A stretch of 64,000 nt of DNA from Candidatus Moraniibacteriota bacterium (GTDB taxonomy: Bacteria > Patescibacteriota > Minisyncoccia > Moranbacterales > UBA1568): assembly GCA_016699425.1 (NCBI GenBank), contig CP064975.1:66979-130978 (forward strand). Direction: 5' to 3'. The translations under genes were made by a program, and so were the position numbers. Shown in pieces: positions 11,919 through 35,108 of this stretch. How positions within the stretch are numbered: the stretch's first letter is position 1; the number at the start of each line of letters is the position of its first letter. A model generated the notes under the pieces. That model saw only the letters and a list, made by a program, of their open reading frames with translations, did no database searches and was not told the DNA's origin.

Positions 11919-12329
11919 ATGCAATTTTATCTCGCAGTAAAAGGGATTGTCCGGAATGCAGCAGGAGAAATCCTCGTTGTGAAGCGCAGTGACCAGGATG
12001 ATCATCTGCCTGGTGTCTGGGAGACCGTCGGCGGGGGCGTCGACCATGAAGAGACGCCACAGCAAGCGCTCGAGCGGGAAATCATGGAAGAAGCGGGTAT
12101 CAAGGTTAGGATAAGCGAGCCCTTCAATGTCTTCACGTTTCGCAAGGATACCGGCGAGTTCAAGGTCGGGATCACCTTCCTCTGCGACACTGATGACACG
12201 GTGGTCACGCTCTCCGAAGAGCATAGTGAATACCGGTGGATCCGGCCGTCAACATTTAAGGACCTGGAATCAATCCCGTCGCTCTATCAAGAAATCGCTC
12301 TCTACGCACAAAAATATGCCGGGAAGTGA
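11919..12329 (+). CDS. NUDIX hydrolase
   Basis: Nudix box GGGVDHEETPQQALEREIMEEAGI (Gx5Ex7REUxEExGU). Confidence 0.85.
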   Translation: MQFYLAVKGIVRNAAGEILVVKRSDQDDHLPGVWETVGGGVDHEETPQQALEREIMEEAGIKVRISEPFNVFTFRKDTGEFKVGITFLCDTDDTVVTLSEEHSEYRWIRPSTFKDLESIPSLYQEIALYAQKYAGK

Positions 12330-12603
12330 AAGTTCAAGCAGCTTCCATTATGTCTATGTGTTGAGAAATATAGCGAAGAAATTTGTTTATGTTGGTGTGA
12401 CGAGTGACTTAAGGCGTCGATTGACAGAACATAATGAAAGCAAGGTGTTTTCGACAAAGCCATACGTACCTCTGAAGCTGATATACTATGAAGCATGTTG
12501 CGAAGGAAAGGATGCGTTGCGTCGTGAAAAGTATCTCAAAACCAGTCAAGGTGCTCGCTTATTGAGAAGGCGCCTGAAAGAATATTTCTACAATAATACT
12601 TGA
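12317..12603 (+). CDS. GIY-YIG domain nuclease family protein
   Basis: YVYVLRN...FVYVGVTSDLRRRLTEHN is the canonical GIY-YIG motif; the start was set to ATG at 12317 inside ORF 12127..12603, overlapping the Nudix stop by 13 nt. Confidence 0.75.
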
Positions 12604-12619: not shown

Positions 12620-14059
12620 ATGCCCAAGCCATTTTTCATCACTACCGCCATTGATTATGTGAATGCGGCACCCCATGTCGGGCATGCCGTGGAGAAAGTG
12701 CTGACCGATGTTGTAGCGCGCTATCAAGTGCTCCAACGCGGAAAAGAGGATGTGTATTTCCTCACGGGTTCGGACGAGAACAGTCTGAAGAATGTCCAAG
12801 CAGCTGAGCGAGTGGGGCGACCAGTTGCGGAGTTTGTCGCAGAGAATGCCGAGAGTTTCAAGGCACTCGCTGGTTCGCTCGATCTCTCCTTTGACCAGTT
12901 TATTCGCACAACTGAACCGCGGCATTTTGAGGGGGCGAAAAAAATGTGGAATGCGTTCAAGAAAGAAGATTTATATTTGAAGAAGTACAGTGGCCTCTAC
13001 TGTGTCGGCTGCGAAGAATTCAAAATGGAGAAGGATCTCGTTGACGGTCTCTGTCCCGATCATAAGGTTGCGCCGGAAGTAGTAGAGGAAGAGAATTGGT
13101 TTTTCAAGCTCTCAAACTACGCTGATAGATTGCTTGCACTGATTGAGAGTGGTGAACTGAAGATCTATCCCGATTATCGGAAGAACGAAGTCGTATCGTT
13201 CATCAAGATGGGACTGGAGGATTTCTCGATCTCGCGTTCGGTCGCGCGGGCTAAAGGCTGGGGCGTCCCGGTGCCGGGTGACGAGAGTCAGATCATGTAT
13301 GTGTGGGTGGATGCCCTGTCCAACTACATCACGGCGCTCGATTATGCGACAGATGGCGAACTGTACAAAAAATTCTGGACGAGTGATTCCGAGCGCGTGC
13401 ATGTCATCGGCAAAGGCATCCTCCGTTTCCATGCGATCTATTGGCCAGCGATGCTCCTGTCGGCCGGACTGCCGCTCCCGACGACGATCTATGCCCACGA
13501 GTACCTGACGATCAATGGGCAAAAGATGTCGAAGACGCTCGGTAACGTCATCTATCCCGACGAGCTCGTGGAGAAATTCGGCGTCGACGGGACGCGCTAC
13601 CTCCTCCTCACCGCGTTGCCGTACTCAAAAGATGGCGATTTGTCCTGGGAGAAAATGACCGAGAAGTATAATGCCGACCTGGCGAATGGTCTCGGCAATC
13701 TTGTCTCGCGCGTGATGAAGCTTTCTGAGAAGCTCGAGGTTTCTTTTTCTGTAGAAGATGATTTCGGAACGAAAGAAACATCGGATCTTCTTGAAGAATT
13801 TCGAGTGGCTGATGCGTTGGCGCATATCTGGACTTATATTGCCGTCCTTAACCGTTCAATAGATGAGAATAAGCCCTGGGAACTCGTTAAGACTGATTAC
13901 AAAAAGTTTGAGAGTAATCATCTCGTTTTGATGCAGGAAATCTACAAGATAGCAGTATTGCTCAGGCCATTCCTCCCATCAACATCAGAAAAAATTGAAA
14001 CTGCACTCAAGACGGGGAAAGTTGAACCGTTGTTTCAGCGGATCAAGACTGAAAAATGA
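12620..14059 (+). CDS. metG: methionine--tRNA ligase (short form)
   Basis: HIGH motif (HVGHA), KMSKS motif (QKMSKT), Cys knuckle CVGCEEF...CPDH, and the ENWFFKLS motif. Confidence 0.9.
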   Translation: MPKPFFITTAIDYVNAAPHVGHAVEKVLTDVVARYQVLQRGKEDVYFLTGSDENSLKNVQAAERVGRPVAEFVAENAESFKALAGSLDLSFDQFIRTTEPRHFEGAKKMWNAFKKEDLYLKKYSGLYCVGCEEFKMEKDLVDGLCPDHKVAPEVVEEENWFFKLSNYADRLLALIESGELKIYPDYRKNEVVSFIKMGLEDFSISRSVARAKGWGVPVPGDESQIMYVWVDALSNYITALDYATDGELYKKFWTSDSERVHVIGKGILRFHAIYWPAMLLSAGLPLPTTIYAHEYLTINGQKMSKTLGNVIYPDELVEKFGVDGTRYLLLTALPYSKDGDLSWEKMTEKYNADLANGLGNLVSRVMKLSEKLEVSFSVEDDFGTKETSDLLEEFRVADALAHIWTYIAVLNRSIDENKPWELVKTDYKKFESNHLVLMQEIYKIAVLLRPFLPSTSEKIETALKTGKVEPLFQRIKTEK

Positions 14060-19946: not shown

Positions 19947-21446
19947 ATGTCCAATCCGCTTATCGAAGAACTGAAAAAGGAACTCGCGCAATTCCATCAT
20001 GCAGTGGAACGAGAATCGATCGGTACCGTCCTTGAGGTCGGTGACGGCGTCGCACGCGTGGCGGGACTGTCCGAGGTCATGGCGTCGGAGATGGTGGAAT
20101 TCGAAAACGGGGCGCTCGGTGTCGCACTCAACCTCGAAGAGAGCGAAGTCGGTGTGATGATTATGAGTGAGATGGGTGACCTCTCCGAAGGTACGAAAGT
20201 TAAAGCAACGGGTCGTATTCTGTCAGTCCCAGTCGGTGAGGGGCTGGTCGGCCGTGTCGTGAATGCCCTCGGCAAAGCCATCGATGGCAAGGGCGAGATC
20301 AAGAGTGATATATTCTATCCTGTTGAAAAGATCGCGCCGGGTGTCATCACGCGCCAGTCGGTGCATCAACCGCTCCAGACGGGTATCAAGGCGATCGACG
20401 CGCTCATCCCAGTGGGTCGCGGCCAGCGCGAGCTCATCATCGGTGACCGACAGACGGGCAAGACCGCCGTCGCGATCGACACGATCATCAACCAAAAGGG
20501 ACAAGGTGTGCTCTGTATCTATGTCGCTATCGGCCAGAAGGCATCTAAAGTCGCTCGGATCAGAGCCGAGCTTGAGAAAGCCGGAGCGATGGAGTATACG
20601 ACAATCGTCGTCGCGGGTGTTTCCGAGTCTGCCGCGCTGTCCTATATCGCGCCCTATGCCGGTTGTGCCATGGGCGAATACTTCATGGATCAGGGGAAAG
20701 ACGTACTGGTCATCTATGATGATCTCTCCAAGCACGCGGTGGCGTATCGCCAGATCTCGCTCATCCTCCGTCGTCCGCCGGGTCGTGAAGCGTATCCCGG
20801 AGATGTCTTTTATGTCCACTCGCGGCTCTTGGAGCGCAGCGCAAAATTGAATGCCGAGAATGGCGGTGGATCGCTCACGGCGCTTCCTATCATCGAGACA
20901 CAGGCGGGTGATGTCTCGGCCTATATCCCGACCAATGTCATCTCGATCACAGACGGCCAGATCTATCTCGAGTCCGATCTTTTTTACAAGGGCATTCGTC
21001 CAGCCTTGAATGTCGGTATCTCGGTCTCACGCGTCGGATCAGCCGCTCAGATCAAGGCGATGAAACAGGTGGCGGGGACGCTTCGTCTCGACCTCGCCCA
21101 GTTCCGTGAGATGGAGGCTTTCGCACAGTTCGGCTCCGACCTCGATGAGAATACTCGTTCACTGATCGAGCGCGGTCGTCGAGCGGTGGAACTCTTGAAG
21201 CAGCCGCAGTATGCGCCGCTCACGGTCGAGAAAGAAGTCGCCCTCCTCTATGCACTCTCGCGGGGACACCTCGATGACATCGCGGTCGACGTACTGGGCC
21301 GATTTGAACAGGAGTTCCTCACATCACTCGAGTCAGATGGGGCAACAGTATTGGAAGCAATCCGTACCGAAAAAGCACTGACGGAAAATGTCGAAAGCCT
21401 CCTCAAGGAACATCTCCTCTCATTCAAGAAAGGTTTTGTTGCCTAA
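19947..21446 (+). CDS. atpA: F0F1 ATP synthase subunit alpha
   Basis: Walker A GDRQTGKT and high overall conservation; the start was moved to ATG at 19947 (MSNPLIEEL) just after the atpH stop. Confidence 0.95.
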
Positions 21447-21455
21447 GAGATTTTT

Positions 21456-22349
21456 ATGCCATCCGGGAAAGACATTCGCCGACGTATCAAGGGCGTAAAG
21501 AGTACAGGAAAGATCACTCGAGCGATGGAGATGATTTCGGCTGTCAAAATGCGCCGGGCGGTCGAACGGGCACTGGCGATGCGGCCCTATGCGCAGGCAG
21601 TACTCTCCGTCCTCCATCGGGTGACGGTCGCCGTGAAACACGAACGGCATCCGCTCCTCCTCGAACGGCCGGTCAAGCGGGAGCTGTATGTGGTCATCAC
21701 GTCCAATCGTGGGCTGTGTGGTTCTTTCAATACCCAAGTCTTGAGAAAACTGCGTGAAGCACGGGCCGAAGACAAGGATCGGACGGCGGCATTTATCACA
21801 CTCGGCAAGAAAGGTGAACAGGCGGTTCGTCGGATGCAAGGTGATATCATCGCATCCTTTCCAGAAGTTTTCGAGTATCCACGAGTGACCGATATGCAGC
21901 CTATCGTGCGCATCATCCTGGACGAATTCCTCGCGGGCCGGGTGGACCGGGTGGTCATGGTCTACACGGACTATGTCTCGGCCCTGGTCCAAAAGGTGAA
22001 GGTCCGGGCGCTTCTCCCGGCGACCGAAAAGGACGCCAAGAAAATGCTCGACGAAATCGGACTGGAAACCAACGGAGACATGGGTGGTGGTGACTTCCTC
22101 ATCGAGCCGTTTCCCGAGACGGTGCTCGAGACGATCATCCCGCGGCTCATCGAAGCCGAGCTGTATCATGCCGTGCTCGAGTCCAATGCTTCACAGGAAG
22201 CCGCGCGCATGGTCGCGATGCGCAGTGCCACCGATGCCGCCCAAGAGATGACCGCTGACCTCACTCTTGCCTACAATCAGCTCCGTCAAGGCAAGATCAC
22301 TCAGGAGATCGCCGAGCTCAGTGCGGGCATGGCCGCGGTGCAGGGGTAG
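21456..22349 (+). CDS. atpG: F0F1 ATP synthase subunit gamma
   Basis: Conserved N-terminus IKGVKSTGKITRAMEMISAVKMRRA and C-terminal helix ITQEIAELSAG. Confidence 0.9.
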   Translation: MPSGKDIRRRIKGVKSTGKITRAMEMISAVKMRRAVERALAMRPYAQAVLSVLHRVTVAVKHERHPLLLERPVKRELYVVITSNRGLCGSFNTQVLRKLREARAEDKDRTAAFITLGKKGEQAVRRMQGDIIASFPEVFEYPRVTDMQPIVRIILDEFLAGRVDRVVMVYTDYVSALVQKVKVRALLPATEKDAKKMLDEIGLETNGDMGGGDFLIEPFPETVLETIIPRLIEAELYHAVLESNASQEAARMVAMRSATDAAQEMTADLTLAYNQLRQGKITQEIAELSAGMAAVQG

Positions 22350-22360
22350 GGACTGGGATG
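22345..22360 (+). repeat. 16-bp direct repeat copy 1 (GGTAGGGACTGGGATG), contains atpG stop codon
   Basis: Identical to 22958..22973. Confidence 0.8.
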
Positions 22361-22377
22361 CATGATGTACGAGTACT

Positions 22378-22962
22378 ATGAAGAAGACGATGAAAAACCT
22401 GGTAGCGGTTCCGAGCGAACATATCATCAAGCAGATTTTCTGGCTGCGTGGTGAGAAAGTGATGCTGGACTCCGATCTAGCAGAAATGTATGCTGTTGAA
22501 GTTAAGGTTCTGAATCAGGCGATCAAGCGAAATATCGAGCGCTTTCCGAAGGACTTTATGTTTCAGCTGACGTTCGAAGAGGCGAATCTGATGCTTGGTT
22601 CAAGGTCACAGTCTGTGACCTTGAACGAGGAAGGAGATAGCCGGATGCAGCCACAAACTGTGACTCCAAAGAGAGGTAAGAACATCAAATATGCCCCCTA
22701 TGCTTTCACCGAACAGGGAGTGGCGATGCTGTCGAGTGTGCTCAAGAGCGAGCGAGCGGTCCAGGTGAATATCCAGATCATCCGGACCTTCGTCGAGCTA
22801 CGGAAGATGCTTGTCACGCACGAGGCGTTGCGGAAGAAGATCGAGGCGATGGAACGAAAATACGATAAGCGGTTCCGAGCGGTGTTTGATGTATTGCGGC
22901 AGCTTTTGAAGGAAGAGGCAGAGCCGAAAAAGAAAATCGGATTCGAGGAAAAGAAAAGGTAG
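22378..22962 (+). CDS. ORF6N-domain (KilA-N-like) DNA-binding protein
   Basis: FWLRGEKVMLDSDLAEMYAVEVKVLNQAIKRNIERFPKDFMFQL is the ORF6N signature; the gene interrupts the atp operon between atpG and atpD. Confidence 0.8.
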   Translation: MKKTMKNLVAVPSEHIIKQIFWLRGEKVMLDSDLAEMYAVEVKVLNQAIKRNIERFPKDFMFQLTFEEANLMLGSRSQSVTLNEEGDSRMQPQTVTPKRGKNIKYAPYAFTEQGVAMLSSVLKSERAVQVNIQIIRTFVELRKMLVTHEALRKKIEAMERKYDKRFRAVFDVLRQLLKEEAEPKKKIGFEEKKR

Positions 22963-22973
22963 GGACTGGGATG
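22958..22973 (+). repeat. 16-bp direct repeat copy 2 (GGTAGGGACTGGGATG), contains ORF6N stop codon
   Basis: Identical to 22345..22360; immediately followed by the TGGAATCTGGAATCTTGG mini-repeat. Confidence 0.8.
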
Positions 22974-23116
22974 TGGAATCTGGAATCTTGGGGTGAAGAC
23001 CAAAATTCTAGATTCTAAATTCGAGACTCGGGTTTAGACAGTTGTTTGGAAAAAAGAAAAAAGACATACTATTGCGGTATGTCAGCGCGTAGTGTTGCTG
23101 ATGTGGCAGCCTATCA

Positions 23117-23383
23117 TCACTTAGGAAGTGTGGTGGCCCAGGCTACCAGCTCTTGAGAACGACACCGTATGCGTTCTCGAGAACCTGGAAACATTACTTC
23201 ATGCGCCGCCATTCTTTCTTCTTCGCTCATGCCGGCAAAAAGCTCATCATACGCTTCAAGGTATGTCCTATCAAGCTCATGAATTGCTTCTTCGTTGAGA
23301 GCAGCCAGTCTTTTTTCAAGATCAGCCTGGTTTAACGAATCCAATGCTTCTTCCAGTGTATGATACTTGGGGATTGACCGCAT
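23117..23383 (-). CDS. hypothetical small protein (88 aa), antisense to atp operon orientation
   Basis: A strong AGGAGG RBS lies 8 nt upstream of ATG (MRSIPKYHTLEEALDSL...), so the ORF-track GTG start was trimmed; no known domain. Confidence 0.55.
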   Translation of the reverse strand: MRSIPKYHTLEEALDSLNQADLEKRLAALNEEAIHELDRTYLEAYDELFAGMSEEERMAAHEVMFPGSRERIRCRSQELVAWATTLPK

Positions 23384-23444
23384 TTCCACTTCCTCCTATG
23401 TTGAAGTTCAAGGTAAAGGACTAGAAAAATAGTGTAGTATAAAA

Positions 23445-23476
23445 TTGAAAAAAAGTCAATCTCATTTACTATAACT
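23445..23476 (+). promoter_or_regulatory. candidate sigma70-like promoter for atpD (TTGAAA ... TATAAC) in AT-rich spacer
   Basis: Pattern match only in a 120-bp AT-rich gap; spacing is 16-19 nt depending on which -10 is chosen. Confidence 0.25.
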
Positions 23477-23495
23477 AATCAAGATTTCCCCCTAA

Positions 23496-24911
<1,416 letters not shown>

Positions 24912-24913
24912 CC

Positions 24914-25360
24914 ATGATCTCTCTCACTCTCAAATTGGTCACACCCGAACGCGCCGTTGCTCTGATGGAGGCGGCGGCAGTGACGCTCCCCATTGCGGAT
25001 GGAGATGTGACTATCCTCCCCACGCACACGCCGTATATCGGTGCGCTCAAGGCGGGCGAAGTCATCATTCGTTTGACGGATGGTAAGACGGAAAGCTTGG
25101 CGGTTTCTGGTGGATTTGTGGAGTTTGATACTAATACGCTCTCTATCTTAGCGGATACTGCCGAACGAGCTGAGGAGATTGATATGGAACGAGCCGAAGC
25201 GGCACGCGCACGGGCCGAAGCTATTCAGCTCAAGCAAGGAGCGATGGGCGAGGAAGAATACGCGCGTGTGGCGGCAGCTCTGGAAAAGGAAATGATTCGC
25301 ATCAGGGTAGTCCGCAAGCATCGGAGTCGCGTCGGACCGAATGTCATATCGCAGGAATAA
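24914..25360 (+). CDS. atpC: F0F1 ATP synthase subunit epsilon
   Basis: Beta-sandwich N-domain plus a helical C-terminus, in the expected position after atpD. Confidence 0.85.
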   Translation: MISLTLKLVTPERAVALMEAAAVTLPIADGDVTILPTHTPYIGALKAGEVIIRLTDGKTESLAVSGGFVEFDTNTLSILADTAERAEEIDMERAEAARARAEAIQLKQGAMGEEEYARVAAALEKEMIRIRVVRKHRSRVGPNVISQE

Positions 25361-25437
25361 TACTGTTCTGAACGGAAGAACGGGGAGGAGTGTTTATTGT
25401 TTCGGTACTGGTGCAATTTGCTGACAGGGAGTAGACT

Positions 25438-25465
25438 GAAGAGGTAGTCGGCCTCTTCGGTTTTT
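25438..25465 (+). terminator. intrinsic terminator of atp operon
   Basis: GAAGAGG-tagtcgg-CCTCTTC followed by GGTTTTT. Confidence 0.6.
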
Positions 25466-25487
25466 CGTAACACATAAACAAAATCAT

Positions 25488-26504
25488 ATGGCAGTGCGAC
25501 GCTCAGAGTGGCGGAAGCATGTGCGGGTGGGCGGATTCCTTCTTGTGTTTGTGCTTTTCGCTCCGGTACTTGGTATTTTCCTCGTGCAGACGCTTTCGCT
25601 GATTCCAAAACGGATACATGTCTCGATGCCGTCTCCGAGCTATCAGGACCAGTCGATGGTGTACAAGGGAGGGGTGATGATGGATCAACCGGGCGTGGCG
25701 GCAGCTGGTATAGATGGCGATATGCTGTGGCGCGGCGAACGGGATATCGTCCCGATGCCGATGGATGCAGTGACCATCCCGAGTTGGGGAACGACGACAC
25801 CAGTTTCGGCGGTTGACCAGAAAATGGTGAAAAGCGCCTCGCTTGATCTACGCGCTCAGAGTTTGGTATGGACAAGTAATCAGATTCAGGCATCGGCGAA
25901 GAATGTCGGCGGATATGTCGAGAGCGCCAATGTCTCGCAGCCGAAGAATGATGTCCAGACCGCATGGCTCGTCGTCCGAGTCCCCGTAGACCGTCTCGAC
26001 GTAGTGATCGAAGAAGCGAAGAAGGTGGCATCGTCGGTCATCAACGAGAACCTGAGCGCCGGAGACGTTACTGATCAGAGTATCGATCTCACGGCCCGGC
26101 TGAATGCGAAGCGAGCCGAAGAAACAGCGCTCGTCTCCCTCCTCGACAAGGCGACCAAAGTGAGTGATGTCATCGAGGTGACGGATCGTTTGGCGTTCGT
26201 TCGGAGTGAGATAGAGGGACTCGATGCGCAGCAGCGCCGGCTAGAAGGGCAGGTCGCCATGTCGTCGCTCTCGATATCGATTACCGAAGATCCGCGCGTC
26301 GTAATCAATGGCGATTCGGTGCGTGACGGCAATGTGATAAAGCAGTCAGTCAATGACCTCACTCGATGGTTGATCGCCCTGGGGAGTGCCCTCGGAGCTA
26401 TCATCATCAGCGGTCTCCCGGTGGTTCTGGTGTACGGATTTTTCCTCTGGGTTTTCTACCGGATCGGTGTCTTTGTCGCCGAGCGTGTCGTCGGACGGAA
26501 ATAG
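25488..26504 (+). CDS. DUF4349-like membrane-anchored protein
   Basis: N-terminal TM, central coiled-coil (LEGQVAMSSLSISI), C-terminal TM; this architecture is typical of the DUF4349 family. Confidence 0.55.
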   Translation: MAVRRSEWRKHVRVGGFLLVFVLFAPVLGIFLVQTLSLIPKRIHVSMPSPSYQDQSMVYKGGVMMDQPGVAAAGIDGDMLWRGERDIVPMPMDAVTIPSWGTTTPVSAVDQKMVKSASLDLRAQSLVWTSNQIQASAKNVGGYVESANVSQPKNDVQTAWLVVRVPVDRLDVVIEEAKKVASSVINENLSAGDVTDQSIDLTARLNAKRAEETALVSLLDKATKVSDVIEVTDRLAFVRSEIEGLDAQQRRLEGQVAMSSLSISITEDPRVVINGDSVRDGNVIKQSVNDLTRWLIALGSALGAIIISGLPVVLVYGFFLWVFYRIGVFVAERVVGRK

Positions 26505-26522
26505 TCTTGTACCCTAAAACTG

Positions 26523-26556
26523 AAAAAGCCCGACTCCTTGAGCCGGGCTTTTTGTC
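26523..26556 (+). terminator. intrinsic terminator
   Basis: AAAAAGCCCGACTCCTTGAGCCGGGCTTTTTGT. Confidence 0.6.
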
Positions 26557-26612
26557 CGCTTTCTTTTTCGGGTGATATACTGCAATCAAATATACTCAAA
26601 CCAAATTCTACC

Positions 26613-28853
26613 ATGCCCCGCTCTCTTCTCATCTTCCTCGCTCTCTTCATTCTCGCTACCACGACCCTCTCCCTCGTCCCCACCACGTCTCTCCACGCAG
26701 GCCTCATTCCCTGCGGCCTCTCCACCCCGGATCCCGATATCCTCGCTAGTACGGATCCTACTCAAGGCACATCCCGTTGCACCCTCTGCCACCTGTTAGT
26801 TGGCTTAAGTCGCATCGTCGTCTTCCTCCGAAACATCATGGCCGCAGTCGCGGTCGCCGTCTTGGTCGCGATGGCCATCATCTACCTCACCTCAGGGGGG
26901 AATGAAGGTCGCATGACCTTTGCCAAAGGAGGCATGTTCGCGGCTTTGATTGGACTCGGTGTCGTCCTCTTAGCCTGGGTCACGGTCAACTTCATCTTGA
27001 CGCTTCCCATCATCAATACTACAACCGGTCTCATCCGTACCGGTTGGGATACGGTGAGCTGTAGTACCACATCCCTCTCGACGGGAGCGGTGGCTACAAC
27101 CACCCCCACCCCTAGTACGGGCGGAGGTGGAGCAGGTGGCACGGGTGGAGGCCTGGGAGGTGGAGGTGATCTCGTCACCTTGCCCAGAGATACATCCGGC
27201 GCGGTCATTGTTGCTCCCATCGCTTCGCCAGCGAGCCTTGGTGTGACGGCTCCGTCTGCTTCGAGTGCAATCCTCTCATGGGGAGCAGTGCCTGGAGCGA
27301 CCGGGTATGAGGTGGAACGCTGTACGGGACTGACCTGTACCGTCTTTACCTCCCTGGGTACGTCCAATACCACGAGTTTTACCGACACCACCCTCACTCC
27401 CGGTACCAGCTATTCCTACCATGTCCGTGCGATCACCTCAGCTGGAGTCTCAACCTGGTCGAATGTGGTGGGAGTGACGACACCTGCCAATCCTGGGAGT
27501 ACGCCCGGGACCGGGGCGATGTGTCCCGATCCGGGGTCTCTCCAATTCCTGTATGGCAAGAGCTGGGTGAGTGATTTCACCCAAGCCGGCAACAACCTGC
27601 CCGTCCGTTGGGAAGTGAGTGTCGATGCCAACAACCAGCTCACCTATCGAGTCACCTGTCGGATGAGTCTCCTCGGCTGGGGAGCTGATCTGTCCCCTCA
27701 GATCACCGTCCCCATTGGGAGTGTCACAGGCAGCTCCTTCCAGGTCTTGAGTCCGGGGACCCAACGCCTGACGAATGCTCAGGGCAACTACTGTGAAGTG
27801 ACCCTCAATGCTTCGATCCTTTCCTACACCCCAAGGACGAGTGCCACGATGACCTTCCAGGGGCAGAACTTTGTCACGGGGGCGTGTTCGGGAGGGAGTG
27901 GGAGTGATGGGGGTGGAGGGAGTGGGGGGACGGATGGAGGAGGGGTGGTGTTGCCTGGGACGGGTGGCGAAGGGGCTTCTCGCTGGCTTGATCCTGCCGG
28001 TGGTGTCACTGTAAATGGTGAGCACTTCAATACGACAGCAGATATCACACGGGGATTGAATGCATATTATACCGGAGTCAATCAACTTGTCAGGAACCGA
28101 TGTGATGCAAGGCATTTGGGCAATCTGGGTGGGCATACGATTTGGATATACGATGATACTGGTACCGAATGTACCGCATACCGGGAGACGATGTCTGATT
28201 ACCAGGAAGCTTCCTATGCACTTCAGCGTGCCGAGAATCCTGATATGGTTACAATCAATGAGCAGCCCAGGTCCTGTAGCTTTGCGCAATACGCACCCGG
28301 CCCAGATATAAAAAGCACCGCATGGAATTGTAGCGCCGATGGGTTCACCTGCGGTTCCCTCGATCCTGGACAGTGGCGCCGGACAGAAGGGATTTTGATC
28401 CAGCTCTCGCCTGGTATCGCGTATACTATTCCCTACACCTATAATCCTGCCACTGATGGTGGTTTGGGATTTAATCTGTCCGTTCATCACTGGTTTGGTG
28501 ATGCCCCCTACAATAATGTTGATCTCTGGCTGTCGGCATCGCCGGGACAGGCTGCTGATACGGATTGTACATCCGCACTTGCTGGCGGAAGTGGAGGAAC
28601 TCCCTCGATCACCGTGAAGACAGGTTATTGCGAGCCGCCGCGTACCGGATACATCAATATCAAGGCGACATCGTGCCAGTATTTCAACACGAACGAACCC
28701 TACCAATTTAGGAGAGGGGGTGGAGACACTTGTTTGGTTAGGATTTTCGGCCCGGATGAGCTTGGCAGTTCCCCGATGCAAATCACCCTGAGTAACGGAA
28801 CAACCGGCGGTCGATCCTACACCTGCCCAGCAGATGTGAATAGCCCCAGGTAA
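26613..28853 (+). CDS. secreted TrbC/VirB2-like pilin domain fused to fibronectin type III and large C-terminal domain
   Basis: Signal peptide, then a two-TM segment with YLTSGGNEG between the helices (the same architecture as the 62-63.7 kb pilins), then a Gly-rich linker, an FN3-like module (SWGAVPGATGYEVERC...YSYHVRAITSAGVS) and ~400 aa of Cys-containing domain; the start was set to ATG at 26613 (the ORF-track start is TTG). Confidence 0.7.
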   Translation: MPRSLLIFLALFILATTTLSLVPTTSLHAGLIPCGLSTPDPDILASTDPTQGTSRCTLCHLLVGLSRIVVFLRNIMAAVAVAVLVAMAIIYLTSGGNEGRMTFAKGGMFAALIGLGVVLLAWVTVNFILTLPIINTTTGLIRTGWDTVSCSTTSLSTGAVATTTPTPSTGGGGAGGTGGGLGGGGDLVTLPRDTSGAVIVAPIASPASLGVTAPSASSAILSWGAVPGATGYEVERCTGLTCTVFTSLGTSNTTSFTDTTLTPGTSYSYHVRAITSAGVSTWSNVVGVTTPANPGSTPGTGAMCPDPGSLQFLYGKSWVSDFTQAGNNLPVRWEVSVDANNQLTYRVTCRMSLLGWGADLSPQITVPIGSVTGSSFQVLSPGTQRLTNAQGNYCEVTLNASILSYTPRTSATMTFQGQNFVTGACSGGSGSDGGGGSGGTDGGGVVLPGTGGEGASRWLDPAGGVTVNGEHFNTTADITRGLNAYYTGVNQLVRNRCDARHLGNLGGHTIWIYDDTGTECTAYRETMSDYQEASYALQRAENPDMVTINEQPRSCSFAQYAPGPDIKSTAWNCSADGFTCGSLDPGQWRRTEGILIQLSPGIAYTIPYTYNPATDGGLGFNLSVHHWFGDAPYNNVDLWLSASPGQAADTDCTSALAGGSGGTPSITVKTGYCEPPRTGYINIKATSCQYFNTNEPYQFRRGGGDTCLVRIFGPDELGSSPMQITLSNGTTGGRSYTCPADVNSPR

Positions 28854-29051
28854 TGTCAGTGGTTCTATTCTGTTGCTGTTGTCTGACTGAGCTGTTTACC
28901 AGGAGGACTGCAAACTTGTATTGTTTTTCTTGCAAATTGAATGGGATGGTGCAGGAGGAGAATCTGAGGATTTGATTTTGGGAGACCAGTTTATCCTTGA
29001 AAAGAGCCCCATTTCCCGCTAGAATGGGCGAGTAATCGTCCGTCTTTGCCT

Positions 29052-31910
29052 ATGAAATACGACCCGAAAAAGATTGAAAAGAAGTGGCAGGGATATTGGG
29101 CTGCCCAGGGGACATTTCGCCAGTATCGGCGTCCCAAGAAGCAGTATGTTCTGGATATGTTTCCGTACCCATCCGGGGCCGGGCTGCATGTTGGGCATCC
29201 CAAAGGCTACATCGCAACGGACGTTTACTCGCGTTTCAAGCAGCTCCAAGGCTATGGCGTGCTGCACCCGATGGGGTGGGATGCATTCGGTTTGCCGGCC
29301 GAGCAGTATGCGATCAAGAACCAGGTCCATCCGGCTGTGGCGGTCAAGAAAAATATCGCAACCTTCAAGAAGCAACTGGAAAGAATTGGCTTCACCTACG
29401 ATTGGGAACGCGAGATCAACACGACCGATCCGGAATATTATAAGTGGACACAGTGGATATTCCTCCAGATGTTCAAGAAAGGATTGGCGTATCAATCTTT
29501 CGATCCCATCAATTGGTGTCCGTCGTGTCAGACAGGGCTGGCCAATGAAGACTTGGAAGAAGGGCGCTGCGAGCGCTGCAACAGTCTGGTGGAAAAGCGG
29601 CCGATGCGCCAGTGGGTGCTCCGGATTACGGCGTACGCTGACAAAATGCTGCGAGATTTGAAGAAGCTCGACTGGCCGGATGGTGTGAAAGAGGCACAAA
29701 AAAATTGGATTGGTCGTTCGGAAGGGGTGGAGGTTACTTTTTATGTTGCGGATTCCGAAGAAGAAGTCTGCGTATTTACGACGCGTATCGACACGATCTA
29801 TGGCTGTACCTATGTGGTGGTGGCGCCAGAACATGAATTACTGAAGAAGCTCGAAGAACGAGTTACGAATTACGATGAGGTAAAAAAATACTTAGAGCAG
29901 ACGAAGAAGAAAACTGATCTGGAGCGGACGGAACTCAATAAGGAGAAGACTGGCGTGAAGCTCGATGGCATCGAGGCGGTCAATCCGTTCACAGGCGAGA
30001 AGGTGCCGGTGTATACAGCGGACTATGTGCTTGGATCGTATGGGACGGGGGCGGTGATGGCAGTGCCAGGGCACGATGAACGTGATTTTGAGTTTGCGAA
30101 AAAGCATGATTTGCCGTCAAAATCTGTCATAGCCCCGTATATCAAACTGACGGGAGACTTTGCGCCGAGAAAAAATAAGACAACGACGACGCGCGAATGC
30201 GTAACGGGAATAGTCTTGAGTGAGAACGGAGATAAAGTTCTTATGCTGAGACGGAAGAAAGACAGCATGCATGTGTTTCCTGGCGGAGGAGTAGAAGCGG
30301 GGGAATCGTCAGAGGCAGCCATGATGCGAGAAATCCGAGAGGAAACTGGTTACACGGATTTTGAGATTATTCGAGTGATTACACCGCGTCTGTATGGACT
30401 TGGGTATAAGGCACACAAGGATGTGAACTGTTTCGATCCGGACACGGTATTCGAGATTCGTCTGAAATCAGAAAAGGGAGAAGAGATGGCCGAAGAGGAA
30501 CATCAGACACATGAGGTACTCTGGGTAGAAAAGGAAAAGGTAGGCGATTTGCCGCGATTTGCTGATCATCATGAATACATGTGGAAAATGTTCCATGGAG
30601 GTAAAGAATCATTCTGCAATGACGGTATCGTTTTTGATTCGGGTGAATTTACCGGGTTGGAGTCTACTGAAGCGCGGAAAAAGATGACAGCGTGGCTCGT
30701 GAAGGAGAAGCTTGGGAAGAAAAAGGTGAATTACAAGATGCGGGATTGGGTGTTCAGCCGGCAGCGCTATTGGGGCGAGCCGATCCCACTCATTCATTGT
30801 GAACGCTGTGGTGTCGTGCCGGTGCCGGAAAAAGAACTTCCGGTGAGGCTTCCGAATGTAAAGAGTTATGAGCCGACAGGAACCGGAGAGTCTCCGCTCG
30901 CCGGTATCGCATCATGGGTGAATGTGAAGTGTCCGAAATGTACGGGGCCAGCCAAGCGCGAGACCAACACGATGCCGCAGTGGGCGGGATCGTCGTGGTA
31001 CTATCTCCGATTTCTCGATCCGCACAATCAGAGAGCCTTGGTGAGTAAGCAGAAGGAAAAACAGTGGATGCCCGTCGATGTTTATGTCGGTGGCGATCAC
31101 GCGACGCGGCATCTCATCTATGCACGTTTCTGGCACAAATTTCTCTATGATCAGGGCGTGGTGAGTACGCCGGAACCGTTCAAACGCCTGGAATTTCTGG
31201 GACTGATCCTCGCCTCCGATGGACGAAAGATGTCGAAGCGGTGGGGAAATGTCATCAATCCGGACGATGTCGTGGCTTTGTTCGGAGCGGACGCCTTCCG
31301 TCTGTACGAGATGTTCATGGGGCCCTTTACCCAGTCGATCGCCTGGAATACGGATGGGGTCGTCGGCACGCGGCGATTTCTCGAAAAGATCTGGAAGCTT
31401 CAAGGAAAACTTACAACCAACAACCAACAACCAACAACCAGAGATAGAATAATCGAGAGTCTATTGCACAAAACCACGAAAAAAGTGACCGAGGACATCG
31501 AAGCGTTCAAGTTCAATACGGCGATCAGTAGCCTGATGATATTGGTCAACGAAATGGAGAAAACTCCTGCGTTACCGGTCACCAGCTATCGATCGCTCCT
31601 GATTCTCCTCGCTCCGTTCGCGCCGCATATCGCCGAAGAACTCTGGAGCGGGCTCGGTGAAAAGAAGTCTGTCTTCCTCGCGGCGTGGCCAAAGTATGAT
31701 CCGAGGCAAATCCGCGAGGAGACGAAGATCATCGGTGTGCAGGTGAATGGGAAAGTCCGCGGCACGATCGAGCTGGCCGTCGATGCGACCGAAGCTGAGG
31801 CGAGAGCACTCGCACTCGCTGATCCAAAGGTGCAGGCTTTCACCGAAGGAAAATCAATCCGGAAATGTATCTATGTCCCGGGCCGCATCCTCAATTTTGT
31901 CATCGTCTGA
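29052..31910 (+). CDS. leuS: leucine--tRNA ligase with internal Nudix-domain insertion
   Basis: HIGH (HVGHPKGY), editing-site TTRIDT, KMSKR motif; an extra ~130 aa block with a Nudix box sits between AVPGHDERDFEFAKKH and DSGEFTGL. Confidence 0.95.
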   Translation: MKYDPKKIEKKWQGYWAAQGTFRQYRRPKKQYVLDMFPYPSGAGLHVGHPKGYIATDVYSRFKQLQGYGVLHPMGWDAFGLPAEQYAIKNQVHPAVAVKKNIATFKKQLERIGFTYDWEREINTTDPEYYKWTQWIFLQMFKKGLAYQSFDPINWCPSCQTGLANEDLEEGRCERCNSLVEKRPMRQWVLRITAYADKMLRDLKKLDWPDGVKEAQKNWIGRSEGVEVTFYVADSEEEVCVFTTRIDTIYGCTYVVVAPEHELLKKLEERVTNYDEVKKYLEQTKKKTDLERTELNKEKTGVKLDGIEAVNPFTGEKVPVYTADYVLGSYGTGAVMAVPGHDERDFEFAKKHDLPSKSVIAPYIKLTGDFAPRKNKTTTTRECVTGIVLSENGDKVLMLRRKKDSMHVFPGGGVEAGESSEAAMMREIREETGYTDFEIIRVITPRLYGLGYKAHKDVNCFDPDTVFEIRLKSEKGEEMAEEEHQTHEVLWVEKEKVGDLPRFADHHEYMWKMFHGGKESFCNDGIVFDSGEFTGLESTEARKKMTAWLVKEKLGKKKVNYKMRDWVFSRQRYWGEPIPLIHCERCGVVPVPEKELPVRLPNVKSYEPTGTGESPLAGIASWVNVKCPKCTGPAKRETNTMPQWAGSSWYYLRFLDPHNQRALVSKQKEKQWMPVDVYVGGDHATRHLIYARFWHKFLYDQGVVSTPEPFKRLEFLGLILASDGRKMSKRWGNVINPDDVVALFGADAFRLYEMFMGPFTQSIAWNTDGVVGTRRFLEKIWKLQGKLTTNNQQPTTRDRIIESLLHKTTKKVTEDIEAFKFNTAISSLMILVNEMEKTPALPVTSYRSLLILLAPFAPHIAEELWSGLGEKKSVFLAAWPKYDPRQIREETKIIGVQVNGKVRGTIELAVDATEAEARALALADPKVQAFTEGKSIRKCIYVPGRILNFVIV

Positions 31911-31959
31911 GAGTAGCGTAGTCCTGACACGGCCTCGGCTTTGCGATATACTTGACCCT

Positions 31960-32631
31960 ATGCACTCCATTATCCCAGAACTGTTACCACTCGATCGGCC
32001 GCTGATTGTCTTCGATCTCGAGACGACCGGGTTGTCTGCGGGCGAGGACAAGATCATCGAGCTCGCGTATGAGAAGATCATGCCGAATGGCAGCGTCACG
32101 GCGCATGTCCACCGAATCAACCCTGGCCGGCCGATCCCGCCGGAAGCGAGCGCGATAAATGGCATCTCAGACGCAGATGTGGCGGATGCACCGAGCTTTG
32201 CCAAGCTTTCGTATGCACTGTGGAGCGCCTTCGAGGGGGCGGATGTCGGCGGTTTCAATATCACTGGCTTTGACCTCCCTTTCCTGAAGACGGAATTCGC
32301 TTCAGTCGGGAAAAGCTTCGATTATCTCTCGAAAAAAATTCTCGATGCCAAGATTCTTTACCACAAGATGGAACGGCGTGACATGTTCGCGCCGCGCAAC
32401 CTGAGTGCAGCCTACAAGCTTTACTGCGGCAAAGAGCATACGACCGCGCATACCGGAGCGGGTGATGTGCGGGTGACGGTCGAGGTGCTCGAAGAGGAAT
32501 TGCGTCGGTATCCGGAATTCCGCGATTGGAAGTATCTCGCCGAGCTCCATGGGAATAAAGATCTCCTTGAATCGGCCAAGACTGAACACGCGAGCCTCGA
32601 GGACACGCTGCGCGCCAATACGCTCTTTTGA
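31960..32631 (+). CDS. DnaQ-like 3'-5' exonuclease (DEDDh family)
   Basis: Exo I motif FDLETTGL, a later HTAHTGAGD Exo III-like motif; the start was set to ATG at 31960, avoiding overlap with leuS. Confidence 0.8.
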   Translation: MHSIIPELLPLDRPLIVFDLETTGLSAGEDKIIELAYEKIMPNGSVTAHVHRINPGRPIPPEASAINGISDADVADAPSFAKLSYALWSAFEGADVGGFNITGFDLPFLKTEFASVGKSFDYLSKKILDAKILYHKMERRDMFAPRNLSAAYKLYCGKEHTTAHTGAGDVRVTVEVLEEELRRYPEFRDWKYLAELHGNKDLLESAKTEHASLEDTLRANTLF

Positions 32632-32640
32632 TCAAATCAT

Positions 32641-33405
32641 ATGGATAGTCTCGATGCGATCATTCTCGGCGTCGTCGAAGGTCTGACGGAATTTTTGCCG
32701 ATTTCCTCGACCGGTCATCTCGTGCTCGTCTCGCATCTCCTCGGATTGTCGGAAACGGATTTCTTGAAGTCATTTGAGGTGGTCATTCAACTTGGGGCCA
32801 TCCTCGCGGTGGTCACACTCTATTGGCGGAAACTTCTCTTTGATCGGGCAGTGATGCAGCGTATTGTGGTCGCGCTCCTCCCGGCGCTTGGCGTGGGGTA
32901 TCTCTTCTACGCGACGATCCGCTCACTGCTCGTGTCACAGCTGACCGTGGTCATAGCGCTGTTTGTCGGCGGCGTAATCCTCATACTGTTTGAACGGTAT
33001 CGCCAGGAACCGACGAATCCGGCCGCGGTGGAAACGTTGACATACAAGCAAGCCCTCCTGATAGGACTCGCTCAGGCGCTCTCGGTCGTGCCGGGCGTGT
33101 CGCGCGCCGGAGCGACGATTGTCGGTGGGCTCGCGACCGGACTTTCTCGGTCAGCGGCAGTGGAGTTCTCGTTTCTCCTTGGCGTACCGACGATGGTCGC
33201 AGCCACGACCTTGGATGTTGTGAAACATCATGCTGATTTCTCGCTCGCAGATATTCAATCACTCGCCATCGGTCTCATTGTTTCCTTCCTCGTGGCTCTC
33301 GTCGCGATCAAATTCCTGCTTCGCTATGTCGAGACCCATTCCTTTGTTGCTTTCGGTGTGTATCGTATCCTCGTCGCGGTCCTCTTTACCCTCATCATCC
33401 TCTAG
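32641..33405 (+). CDS. uppP: undecaprenyl-diphosphatase
   Basis: VEGLTEFLPISSTGHL signature and 8 TM helices. Confidence 0.9.
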   Translation: MDSLDAIILGVVEGLTEFLPISSTGHLVLVSHLLGLSETDFLKSFEVVIQLGAILAVVTLYWRKLLFDRAVMQRIVVALLPALGVGYLFYATIRSLLVSQLTVVIALFVGGVILILFERYRQEPTNPAAVETLTYKQALLIGLAQALSVVPGVSRAGATIVGGLATGLSRSAAVEFSFLLGVPTMVAATTLDVVKHHADFSLADIQSLAIGLIVSFLVALVAIKFLLRYVETHSFVAFGVYRILVAVLFTLIIL

Positions 33406-34938: not shown

Positions 34939-35020
34939 CCCTCACAGTATTGCTACTATTGGATTTTGCCCTCCCAAGGCGGGTAAAAGTCCAACATTTC
35001 TTCGGTGCCGCGGGAGAGAC
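34939..35020 (-). tRNA. tRNA-like 3' fragment / degenerate type-II tRNA (T-arm + acceptor 3' strand intact, 5' half does not fold)
   Basis: The reverse complement reads ...AATAGTAGCAATACTGT GAGGG TTCAAGT CCCTC CTCGCCC A; no matching 5' acceptor strand or canonical anticodon arm could be found. Confidence 0.35.
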
Positions 35021-35025
35021 TCGAA

Positions 35026-35108
35026 CTCTCATGATATTGCTATCGCGGGATTTTGAGTCCCGTGTGTCTACCATTCCACCACCGCGGCATGTGTCTGGAG
35101 CATTGCCA
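35026..35108 (-). tRNA. tRNA-Leu (anticodon CAA), type II
   Basis: Hand fold: GCCGCGG-TG-GTGG AATGGTAGA CAC-A-CGGGA CTCAAAA TCCCG-CGATAGCAATATCATGA-GAGAG TTCGAGT CTCTC-CCGCGGC-A. The acceptor stem is perfect, the long variable arm has a GCAA loop, and CCA is not fully encoded. Confidence 0.8.

Follow-up and report, generated by a model that had tools for sequence, protein, structure and literature searches.

The leucyl-tRNA synthetase (LeuRS) encoded by the leuS gene in a 64,000-nucleotide (nt) stretch of DNA from a Candidatus Moraniibacteriota bacterium (contig CP064975.1, positions 66,979 to 130,978 of the forward strand; hereafter the window) carries, nested within its CP1 editing domain, a complete and self-folding domain of the Nudix fold in place of the loop known as I4b. 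This LeuRS-Nudix architecture is neither rare nor unique, and leuS alleles that are otherwise 98-99 % identical occur both with and without the inserted domain. The explanation that we favour, with a probability of roughly 0.55, is that the insert would be a complete, catalytically competent and probably Mg2+-dependent Nudix pyrophosphohydrolase, residing at I4b as a swappable, autonomous accessory cassette rather than as an integral part of the synthetase. Coordinates of the features discussed are collected in Table 1.

Nudix fold and catalytic motif of the insert

A preliminary description of the window, made from the sequence alone, had proposed that a Nudix hydrolase domain is inserted inside LeuRS, and the profile, motif and structural comparisons all bear this out. 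When the insert was taken alone, it matched the Pfam NUDIX profile (PF00293) with 69.4 bits and E=4e-19, the gathering threshold being 21.1, and its Nudix box fits the consensus exactly (Table 1). The predicted metal-binding and catalytic residues are E429, E432 and E433 in the numbering of the open reading frame (ORF), together with E420 and R428. The AlphaFold (AF2) model of the insert alone, obtained with 42 homologues, reached a mean predicted local distance difference test score (pLDDT) of 92.4 and a predicted TM-score (pTM) of 0.86; in the model of the full-length protein, pLDDT is 87.8 overall and 88-96 across the inserted block. A Foldseek comparison of the insert model with the PDB gave 566 matches at E<=1e-3, the top 50 of which are all Nudix hydrolases with a probability of 1.0, so that the predicted fold is the alpha/beta/alpha sandwich of this superfamily. 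Leading matches include the MutT/Nudix protein of E. faecalis (2azw), the diadenosine tetraphosphate (Ap4A) hydrolase of A. aeolicus (3i7u; target-normalised TM-score, TMt, 0.80), E. coli RppH, NudI and Ndx1.

The catalytic Glu residues are likewise retained among orthologues. The strict Nudix box is kept in 49 of the 57 LeuRS with a Nudix domain at the I4b site, and in alignments of 43 and of 23 sequences the Glu of the RE pair, the EE pair and the G of the box are invariant. Judging from these alignments, the Nudix catalytic motif in LeuRS inserts is under purifying selection. A non-Nudix fold or a lack of conservation of the catalytic Glu, either of which would have refuted the preliminary description by its own criteria, was thus not observed.

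The extra block had been estimated at ~130 amino acids (aa); a large extra block is indeed present, although its size is slightly greater. Positions 30135-30615 are in frame with leuS, and both conserved anchor segments lie in one ORF. The 165-aa block takes the place of a loop of 13 aa in T. thermophilus LeuRS, or of ~23 aa in the LeuRS of close relatives, and pairwise alignment sets the T. thermophilus loop 364-376 against window residues 362-520. In insert-less relatives, the stretch from AVPxHDERDxxFAxKxxLP to DSGEFTGL spans 48-59 aa with the anchors and ~21-35 aa between them, as compared with an anchor-to-anchor distance of ~200 aa in the window protein and 56 other LeuRS; the net extra sequence in the window LeuRS is ~140-150 aa. 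The suggestion that the inserted DNA is locally AT-richer also holds, with a GC content of 0.468 and a GC content at third codon positions (GC3) of 0.465, against a GC3 of 0.65 in the flanking leuS segments and a GC content of 0.55 for the window.

The synthetase and the site of insertion

The host protein has the hallmarks of a complete synthetase. It scores 1045.9 bits against the LeuRS model TIGR00396 (cut-off 548.4), the profile match being split in two by the insert, and aligns with T. thermophilus LeuRS at E=6e-238. The class I motifs are present, HIGH as HVGH and KMSKS as KMSKR. The protein is an exact match to an NCBI entry (P0001) described as leucine--tRNA ligase of Candidatus Moraniibacteriota bacterium, derived from a metagenome-assembled genome (MAG) and encoded on a 1.2-Mb contig. 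A leucine-specific domain was not found in the alignment to T. thermophilus LeuRS. On these sequence features, the window protein is taken to be a full bacterial-type LeuRS and the housekeeping enzyme of the organism.

The motifs of the CP1 editing domain are intact in spite of the domain nested within it: FTTRIDT (the T-rich motif), the GTG loop, HDERD with the catalytic Asp, and YGTGAVMAVPGHDERD. Residues T243, T244, D247, T248, H341, D342, R344 and D345 are invariant in an alignment of 79 LeuRS, and by its motifs the window LeuRS is predicted to have an editing-competent CP1.

The full-length model places the cassette between the CP1 helix 343-351 and the helix 538-551. The I4b of bacterial LeuRS is a long loop between alpha2 and alpha3 that is non-conserved among bacteria and borders the editing pocket, one of its residues lying ~4 Å from an editing-site inhibitor, while in eukaryal LeuRS the I4 insertion covers the opening of this pocket (PMC3747510). 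Since the cassette sits between alpha2 and alpha3, that is, at I4b, the Nudix domain is nested at the lip of the pocket for the tRNA 3' end. The modelled architecture is one of two-level nesting, with Nudix inside CP1 and CP1 inside the Rossmann core.

Table 1. Features of leuS and of other genes in the window (positions are those of the window)
Feature	Position	Strand	Details
leuS ORF	29046..31910	+	954 aa, single uninterrupted frame; NCBI P0001 begins at ATG 29052, 952 aa
CP1 editing domain, first part	29700..30146	+	aa 219-367; Pfam PF13603 E=1e-61, profile positions 1-145 of 185
Central leuS block	29726..30956		without close counterpart in the ~98 %-identical contig L003 (blastn; alignment of P0001 and P0039); GC3 0.534 vs 0.65 in flanks
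Inserted cassette	30117..30611	+	aa 358-522 (165 aa); linkers and Nudix domain; takes the place of the I4b loop
Pfam NUDIX PF00293 match	30204..30575	+	aa 387-510; 65.8 bits in whole protein
Nudix box GGVEAGESSEAAMMREIREETGY	30285..30353	+	aa 414-436; exact fit to GX5EX7REUXEEXGU
Return to CP1 and catalytic core	30612..30749	+	FCNDGIVFDSGEFTGL...KVNYKMRDW
Free-standing Nudix gene	11919-12329	+	136 aa; Pfam E=1.7e-21
ORF directly upstream of leuS	26538-28853	+	771 aa, Gly/Thr-rich; N-terminus like type IV secretion system (T4SS) pilins; fn3 domain
DEDD RNase T-family exonuclease	31957-32628	+	downstream of leuS
Undecaprenyl-diphosphatase-like membrane protein	32641-33405	+	downstream of leuS
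tRNA-Leu(CAA)	35004-35088	-	~3 kb downstream of leuS; no other tRNA gene in the window

Distribution among synthetases and beyond

Relatives were surveyed through the 120 best LeuRS matches, 115 of which are near full length. Forms with and without the insert were both found: at the I4b site 56 of the 115 have a Nudix domain, 53 have no insert and six have another insert. The last group comprises an S-adenosylmethionine (SAM)-methyltransferase (P0047), a ~120-aa domain (P0098, P0107) and shorter inserts; the ~120-aa inserts and one of ~105 aa (P0078) had no match in Pfam or PADLOC. Source names of these relatives are Moranbacteria, Pacebacteria, Parcubacteria and Patescibacteria.

When 1.84 billion cluster representatives were searched exhaustively with the insert by phmmer, 1678 matched at E<=1e-3. 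Of the 149 top clusters, formed at 50 % identity, 83 are LeuRS or LeuRS fragments, and the architecture is therefore present in at least 83 clusters. The best matches are LeuRS with two to three Nudix domains at no fewer than three sites (the CP1 hinge, I4b and the loop after KVNYKMRDW). Some of these proteins (P0121, P0122, P0131, P0128, P0141, P0166 and P0195), 1100-1330 aa in length, hold three Nudix domains, or Nudix together with a serine hydrolase (PF06821) or a Ham1/ITPase domain. A variant box, GX5Q...AE..EE, is frequent in the second copies of such multi-copy LeuRS.

Among GTDB species representatives, Nudix at I4b was recognised in 14 (Moraniibacteriota, Magasanikbacteria and Patescibacteria, some evidently mislabelled). 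The scan used two patterns from a seven-sequence alignment, VFPGGG.. and G[YF]K..K[DN]VN, which are restricted to one subclade, and the 14 species are therefore a lower bound; the remaining pattern matches are ordinary free-standing Nudix genes. All Nudix-bearing LeuRS are annotated as plain LeuRS or as 'class I tRNA ligase family protein', and for this reason constitute a gap in annotation.

The same Nudix clade extends beyond LeuRS. It occurs in a small DPANN-type clade of prolyl-tRNA synthetases (ProRS; P0197 and P0273-P0276, from relatives of Nanoarchaeota and Woesearchaeota), where it separates the anticodon-binding domain from the C-terminal one; Nudix is lacking in the 115 remaining top matches among ProRS, and in P0197 a canonical Nudix box was not recognised. 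It was also found in a protein with M17 aminopeptidase and GNAT domains and in a His-phosphatase protein. Finally, free-standing genes of the clade exist, and seven of their loci were examined. Three of the seven genes are near genes of aminoacyl-tRNA synthetases (aaRSs) or related proteins (one directly preceded by ProRS, one directly followed by a tRNA_SAD protein, and one at a distance of two genes from ProRS), whereas four have no adjoining aaRS gene, and the evidence from neighbourhood is suggestive rather than strong. At two free-standing loci (L089 and L090), the neighbouring genes are full of stops when read with translation table 11, and translation of the called gene does not yield the query, which suggests a recoded lineage, for example one with UGA reassignment.

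Gain, loss and exchange of the cassette

Pairs of nearly identical alleles reveal how the insert comes and goes. One LeuRS with Nudix (P0007) and one without insert (P0070) have N- and C-terminal cores that are 98.9 and 99.1 % identical, and the two loci are syntenic (SLT, two response regulators, leuS and a nucleotidyltransferase). At the DNA level, the two leuS genes agree at ~98 % until abrupt junctions are reached; the interval that these enclose is a Nudix block of 519 nt in the one and an unrelated block of ~75 nt in the other. By this alignment, one sequence has taken the place of another and has not simply been deleted. Comparable near-identical pairs were found for the methyltransferase insert and for the ~120-aa insert without family match. 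Overall, 15 LeuRS pairs with at least 90 % core identity differ in insert state, and the nearest core neighbour is insert-less for 19 of the 56 Nudix-bearing LeuRS. The identities of core and insert are correlated with r=0.24 only, and some inserts are closer to each other than are their cores (for example, 86 % versus 63 %).

The existence of alleles of 98-99 % identity in both states, with cassette and without, means that the cassette is not required by LeuRS. On short evolutionary timescales the cassette is, from these sequence comparisons, dispensable, and the idea of a fixed, 'built-in' module, which had been put forward for the window protein, has to be abandoned.

The window allele itself appears to be a mosaic. 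A MAG contig (L003) is ~98 % identical at the nucleotide level to window positions 20632-26503 and to both ends of leuS, and in place of 29726-30956 it has a divergent block in which the editing motifs are degenerate and the zinc-binding (ZN) loop contains a HAD domain. Over the first ~225 aa, the LeuRS of L003 (P0039; L003 6001-9036) does not differ from the window protein, and over the last ~270 aa only a few substitutions separate the two. Within the editing domain it has SAHFEA instead of TTRxDT, and a HAD-like domain of ~200 aa lies in the zinc-binding loop (CPxC...RETNTMPQW). The tract 29726-30956 of the window is thus probably a product of recombination, carrying the whole editing domain together with the Nudix cassette.

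With regard to mechanism, no intein or Hint family was found in a Pfam scan of the window LeuRS, in which the insert is covered by the NUDIX model, nor does that scan find an endonuclease domain in the insert. His-Asn splice residues are absent from the C-terminal junction, which reads ...GGKES/FCNDG, and no direct or inverted repeats of note occur at the cassette junctions. Given the lack of junction repeats, endonuclease and intein, homologous recombination through the conserved flanks is the simplest mechanism, and cassettes would be exchanged in this way. Because Ham1, HAD, serine-hydrolase and methyltransferase domains are found in the same LeuRS loops, the site is best regarded as a general landing pad.

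Function of the inserted domain

The fold, the conserved motif, the insertion site, the distribution, the presence or absence of the insert and the mosaic alleles are results of the analysis, whereas catalytic activity, a substrate class and independence from LeuRS chemistry are inferred. We envisage that in Patescibacteria (candidate phyla radiation, CPR), I4b and at least two further LeuRS loops would act as landing pads for small hydrolase and transferase domains, and that alleles with different cassettes or with none would be exchanged among close relatives through conserved LeuRS flanks. The tethered Nudix domain would act autonomously on a soluble nucleoside-polyphosphate-X substrate, the likeliest candidates being NudH/RppH-like, that is, dinucleoside polyphosphates such as Ap4A, or nucleoside tri/diphosphates. 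It would be co-expressed and co-localised with the synthetase and would take no part in aminoacylation or editing. Autonomy of the domain is proposed because free-standing genes of the same clade exist.

Several observations weigh against this explanation. Links with aaRSs recur, in that LeuRS make up 83 of the 149 clusters, fusions occur in DPANN ProRS and three of the seven free-standing genes lie near synthetase genes, and such recurrent association could reflect mechanistic coupling. The lip of the editing pocket is not obviously a neutral location. A subclade and many second copies have the variant box GX5Q, with Arg replaced by Ala, Met or Thr, and some of these copies may be inactive or altered. 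Moreover, no curated Nudix subfamily threshold was reached, so that the substrate class can be proposed only weakly.

On comparison with named Nudix families, RppH models (PRK00714) gave the best NCBIfam match for all 23 inserts compared, the best score being 43 bits, well short of the cut-off of 118, and models of the YtkD RNA pyrophosphohydrolase were also among the best for the 23. MutT, NudI, NudC and NadM-Nudix models score below RppH. For MutT (TIGR00586 / PRK10776) the scores of 28-32 bits versus 97.9 and 27-30 versus 148 also fall below the cut-offs. The match to NadM-Nudix (PRK05379; 19 bits versus 449) is confined to the Nudix box, and the inserts are not members of that family. Structural comparison is similarly broad: hydrolases of Ap4A and Ap6A and RppH structures (3i7u, 1vc8, 4mpo and 7sp3) are among the top matches, and MutT, NudI and DIPP score alike. 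Hydrolysis of Ap4A is, on these comparisons, only one possible candidate activity.

The preliminary description had suggested a link to the Ap4A that aaRSs make as a side product, and it may be asked whether the domain is a dedicated hydrolase of Ap4A or other dinucleoside tetraphosphates (Np4N), removing or tuning the dinucleoside polyphosphates that are made from aminoacyl-adenylate and ATP. The aaRSs are the main cellular source of Ap4A, and the independent links of this Nudix clade to synthetases (three or more LeuRS sites, the ProRS fusions, and free-standing genes by ProRS and a tRNA_SAD protein) are in keeping with such a role, as are the closest structure and sequence neighbours, which include 3i7u, Ndx1 (Ap6A), CT771 and RppH bound to Ap4A. 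Nudix-type Ap4A hydrolases as a rule have an aromatic Tyr ~16-18 residues after the box; the window protein has Tyr at +14 and +18, orthologues have F or Y at the corresponding position, and this aromatic residue 14-18 aa past the box may count in favour. However, a dedicated role sits poorly with the presence and absence of the cassette among alleles of 98-99 % identity and with unrelated enzymes (Ham1, HAD, serine hydrolase, methyltransferase) in the same or neighbouring loops. The likeness to Ap4A hydrolases is no stronger than that to MutT, NudI and DIPP, the insertion is on the editing domain, away from the synthetic site where Ap4A would form, and four of the seven free-standing genes do not adjoin an aaRS. 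Such coupling is a tentative possibility.

A bolder proposal, which we regard as equally tentative, is that in ultra-small symbionts the aaRSs (those of CPR bacteria, and the ProRS of DPANN archaea) are platforms for recombination-shuffled, nucleotide-directed hydrolase cassettes (Nudix in one to three copies, Ham1, HAD and serine hydrolase) that are functionally coupled to the synthetase, possibly for control of the Ap4A/Np4N alarmones that aaRSs make or for policing the ends of the tRNA bound where the editing pocket opens. If so, these cassettes would form a modular, strain-variable accessory layer on an essential translation enzyme, possibly kept by conflict or by niche-specific selection.

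The fit of all 23 inserts to RppH and YtkD models, the RppH-RNA complexes among the top Foldseek matches and the position of I4b at the border of the pocket for the tRNA 3' end could alternatively point to an RppH-like enzyme acting on LeuRS-bound tRNA-Leu or other RNA, from which it would remove a 5' triphosphate, a diphosphate or a nucleotide cap. We consider this unlikely, as the profile scores are far under the family cut-offs, the cassette is also found at other LeuRS sites and in ProRS, the insert-less allele indicates that it is dispensable, and the retention of tRNA 5' triphosphates or caps in these organisms is unsupported.

Strain-level turnover of cassettes, mosaic leuS alleles and the variety of hydrolase and transferase domains would also be expected of a hypervariable module driven by conflict, in which diversifying selection acts, for example, for detoxifying nucleotide-like aaRS inhibitors or for evading phage or competitor factors that target LeuRS; in other bacteria, I4b contacts editing-site inhibitors (PMC3747510). 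The only PADLOC match, though, is confined to the box region and is to PDC-S07, a generic Nudix candidate, and the leuS neighbourhoods that were inspected showed no genes for toxins, immunity or defence. Nudix enzymes are not known to inactivate mimics of aminoacyl-adenylate. We hold this explanation to be quite improbable.

A non-catalytic role, as a structural or regulatory lid comparable to I4ae that would mainly govern entry to the editing pocket or else sense a bound nucleotide, finds some encouragement in the equivalence of the site to the I4 insertion of eukaryal LeuRS, which lies over the pocket opening (PMC3747510), in the altered boxes of some lineages (GX5Q, loss of Arg) and in the ProRS copy without a recognisable box. 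Nevertheless the strict box in 49 of 57 inserts with its invariant Glu triad, and the unrelated folds found in the same loop, make such a lid very improbable. An artefactual origin, whether from chimeric assembly, from a wrongly called gene, or from an intein or intron removed before the protein matures, is essentially excluded, since, even though the sources are metagenome assemblies in which mosaic alleles could in principle be chimeras, leuS is a single clean ORF on a 1.2-Mb contig, the same in-frame architecture recurs across dozens of independent samples and sources, no Hint/intein match was found while the Nudix model spans the insert, junction repeats are absent and the full-length fold is confident.

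Relation to known systems

RppH/NudH and the Nudix hydrolases of dinucleoside polyphosphates (RppH 4s2x and 7sp3, 3i7u, and Ndx1 1vc8) have the same fold and catalytic box as the insert and are its best neighbours (phmmer E=1.5e-6, Foldseek E=1e-8, target-normalised TM-score up to 0.8). They share only 17-24 % identity with it, however, and are free-standing whereas the insert is nested; in addition to the distance from the NCBIfam cut-offs, the conserved extras of the insert (an HKxVN motif and H..W) are not those of RppH. In the LeuRS literature, I4b of bacteria and I4ae of eukarya and archaea occupy the same point between alpha2 and alpha3, the bacterial site being variable (PMC3747510). 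The known I4 insertions are loops or single helices without a fold or catalytic motif of their own, unlike the 140-aa enzyme domain seen here and the methyltransferase or other domains in relatives.

NadM-Nudix, an NMN adenylyltransferase/ADP-ribose pyrophosphatase (PRK05379), likewise combines a HIGH-motif nucleotidyltransferase with Nudix (PMC7824862). It differs in being an end-to-end fusion in a metabolic enzyme and not an aaRS. Isoleucyl-tRNA synthetase (IleRS) with a GNAT domain (NCBIfam NF040702) is another case of an essential class Ia aaRS joined to an enzyme domain that modifies small molecules, although both the synthetase and the added domain are different; we know of no strain-level presence and absence, or multi-site and multi-copy behaviour, in IleRS-GNAT. 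In eukaryotes, domains appended to aaRSs (WHEP, GST-like, EMAPII, UNE) are accessory additions that confer extra functions. These are terminal, mostly non-enzymatic and fixed in large clades, in contrast to the LeuRS cassette, which is internal, enzymatic in type and polymorphic between close strains.

The preliminary description had supposed the architecture to be undescribed, and our full-text literature search agrees with this, as it returned no description of a Nudix insertion in LeuRS or other aaRSs or of cassette variation in CPR LeuRS. Multidomain aaRSs and Nudix fusions are known already; what is new is the nested, multi-copy and strain-variable character of the insertion. The aaRSs are among the most conserved enzymes, and idiosyncratic insertions in them usually mark deep lineages. 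Here, strains with leuS genes of otherwise 98-99 % identity have gained, lost or exchanged a cassette, and in CPR bacteria an essential translation gene can thus act as a cassette locus, probably driven by recombination. Such pairs offer a natural test of physical aaRS-Nudix coupling, be it for Ap4A/Np4N turnover or for RNA-end processing, and I4b, the CP1 hinge and the ZN loop may serve as permissive LeuRS sites for engineered domain insertion.

Neighbourhood of leuS and the second Nudix gene of the window

The window holds another, free-standing Nudix gene, which the preliminary description had considered a plausible source of the inserted domain. As a donor of the cassette it was rejected, because, with an identity of only 36 % over the 56 aa of the box region, it is far more distant than the cassettes of other LeuRS, which show 80-88 % identity. 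This gene is immediately followed by a small ORF with a GIY-YIG nuclease domain (12337-12603, +) and then by the gene of a 479-aa methionyl-tRNA synthetase (MetRS; 12620-14059), and the second Nudix gene of the window is thus also located beside an aaRS gene.

Upstream of leuS, positions 26504-28994 of the window are not present in L003, which has ~80 nt at the site; it is a strain-specific indel of 2.5 kb beside the variable leuS. Downstream, the listed ORF of the exonuclease overlaps the end of leuS, and its true start is probably internal. Further away, an ORF6N/Rha-like gene of the phage-regulator type and a stretch of ~440 nt (22378-22962 and 23055-23497) lie between the genes of the ATP synthase gamma and beta subunits, and the ~440-nt stretch differs completely from that in the 98 %-identical relative.

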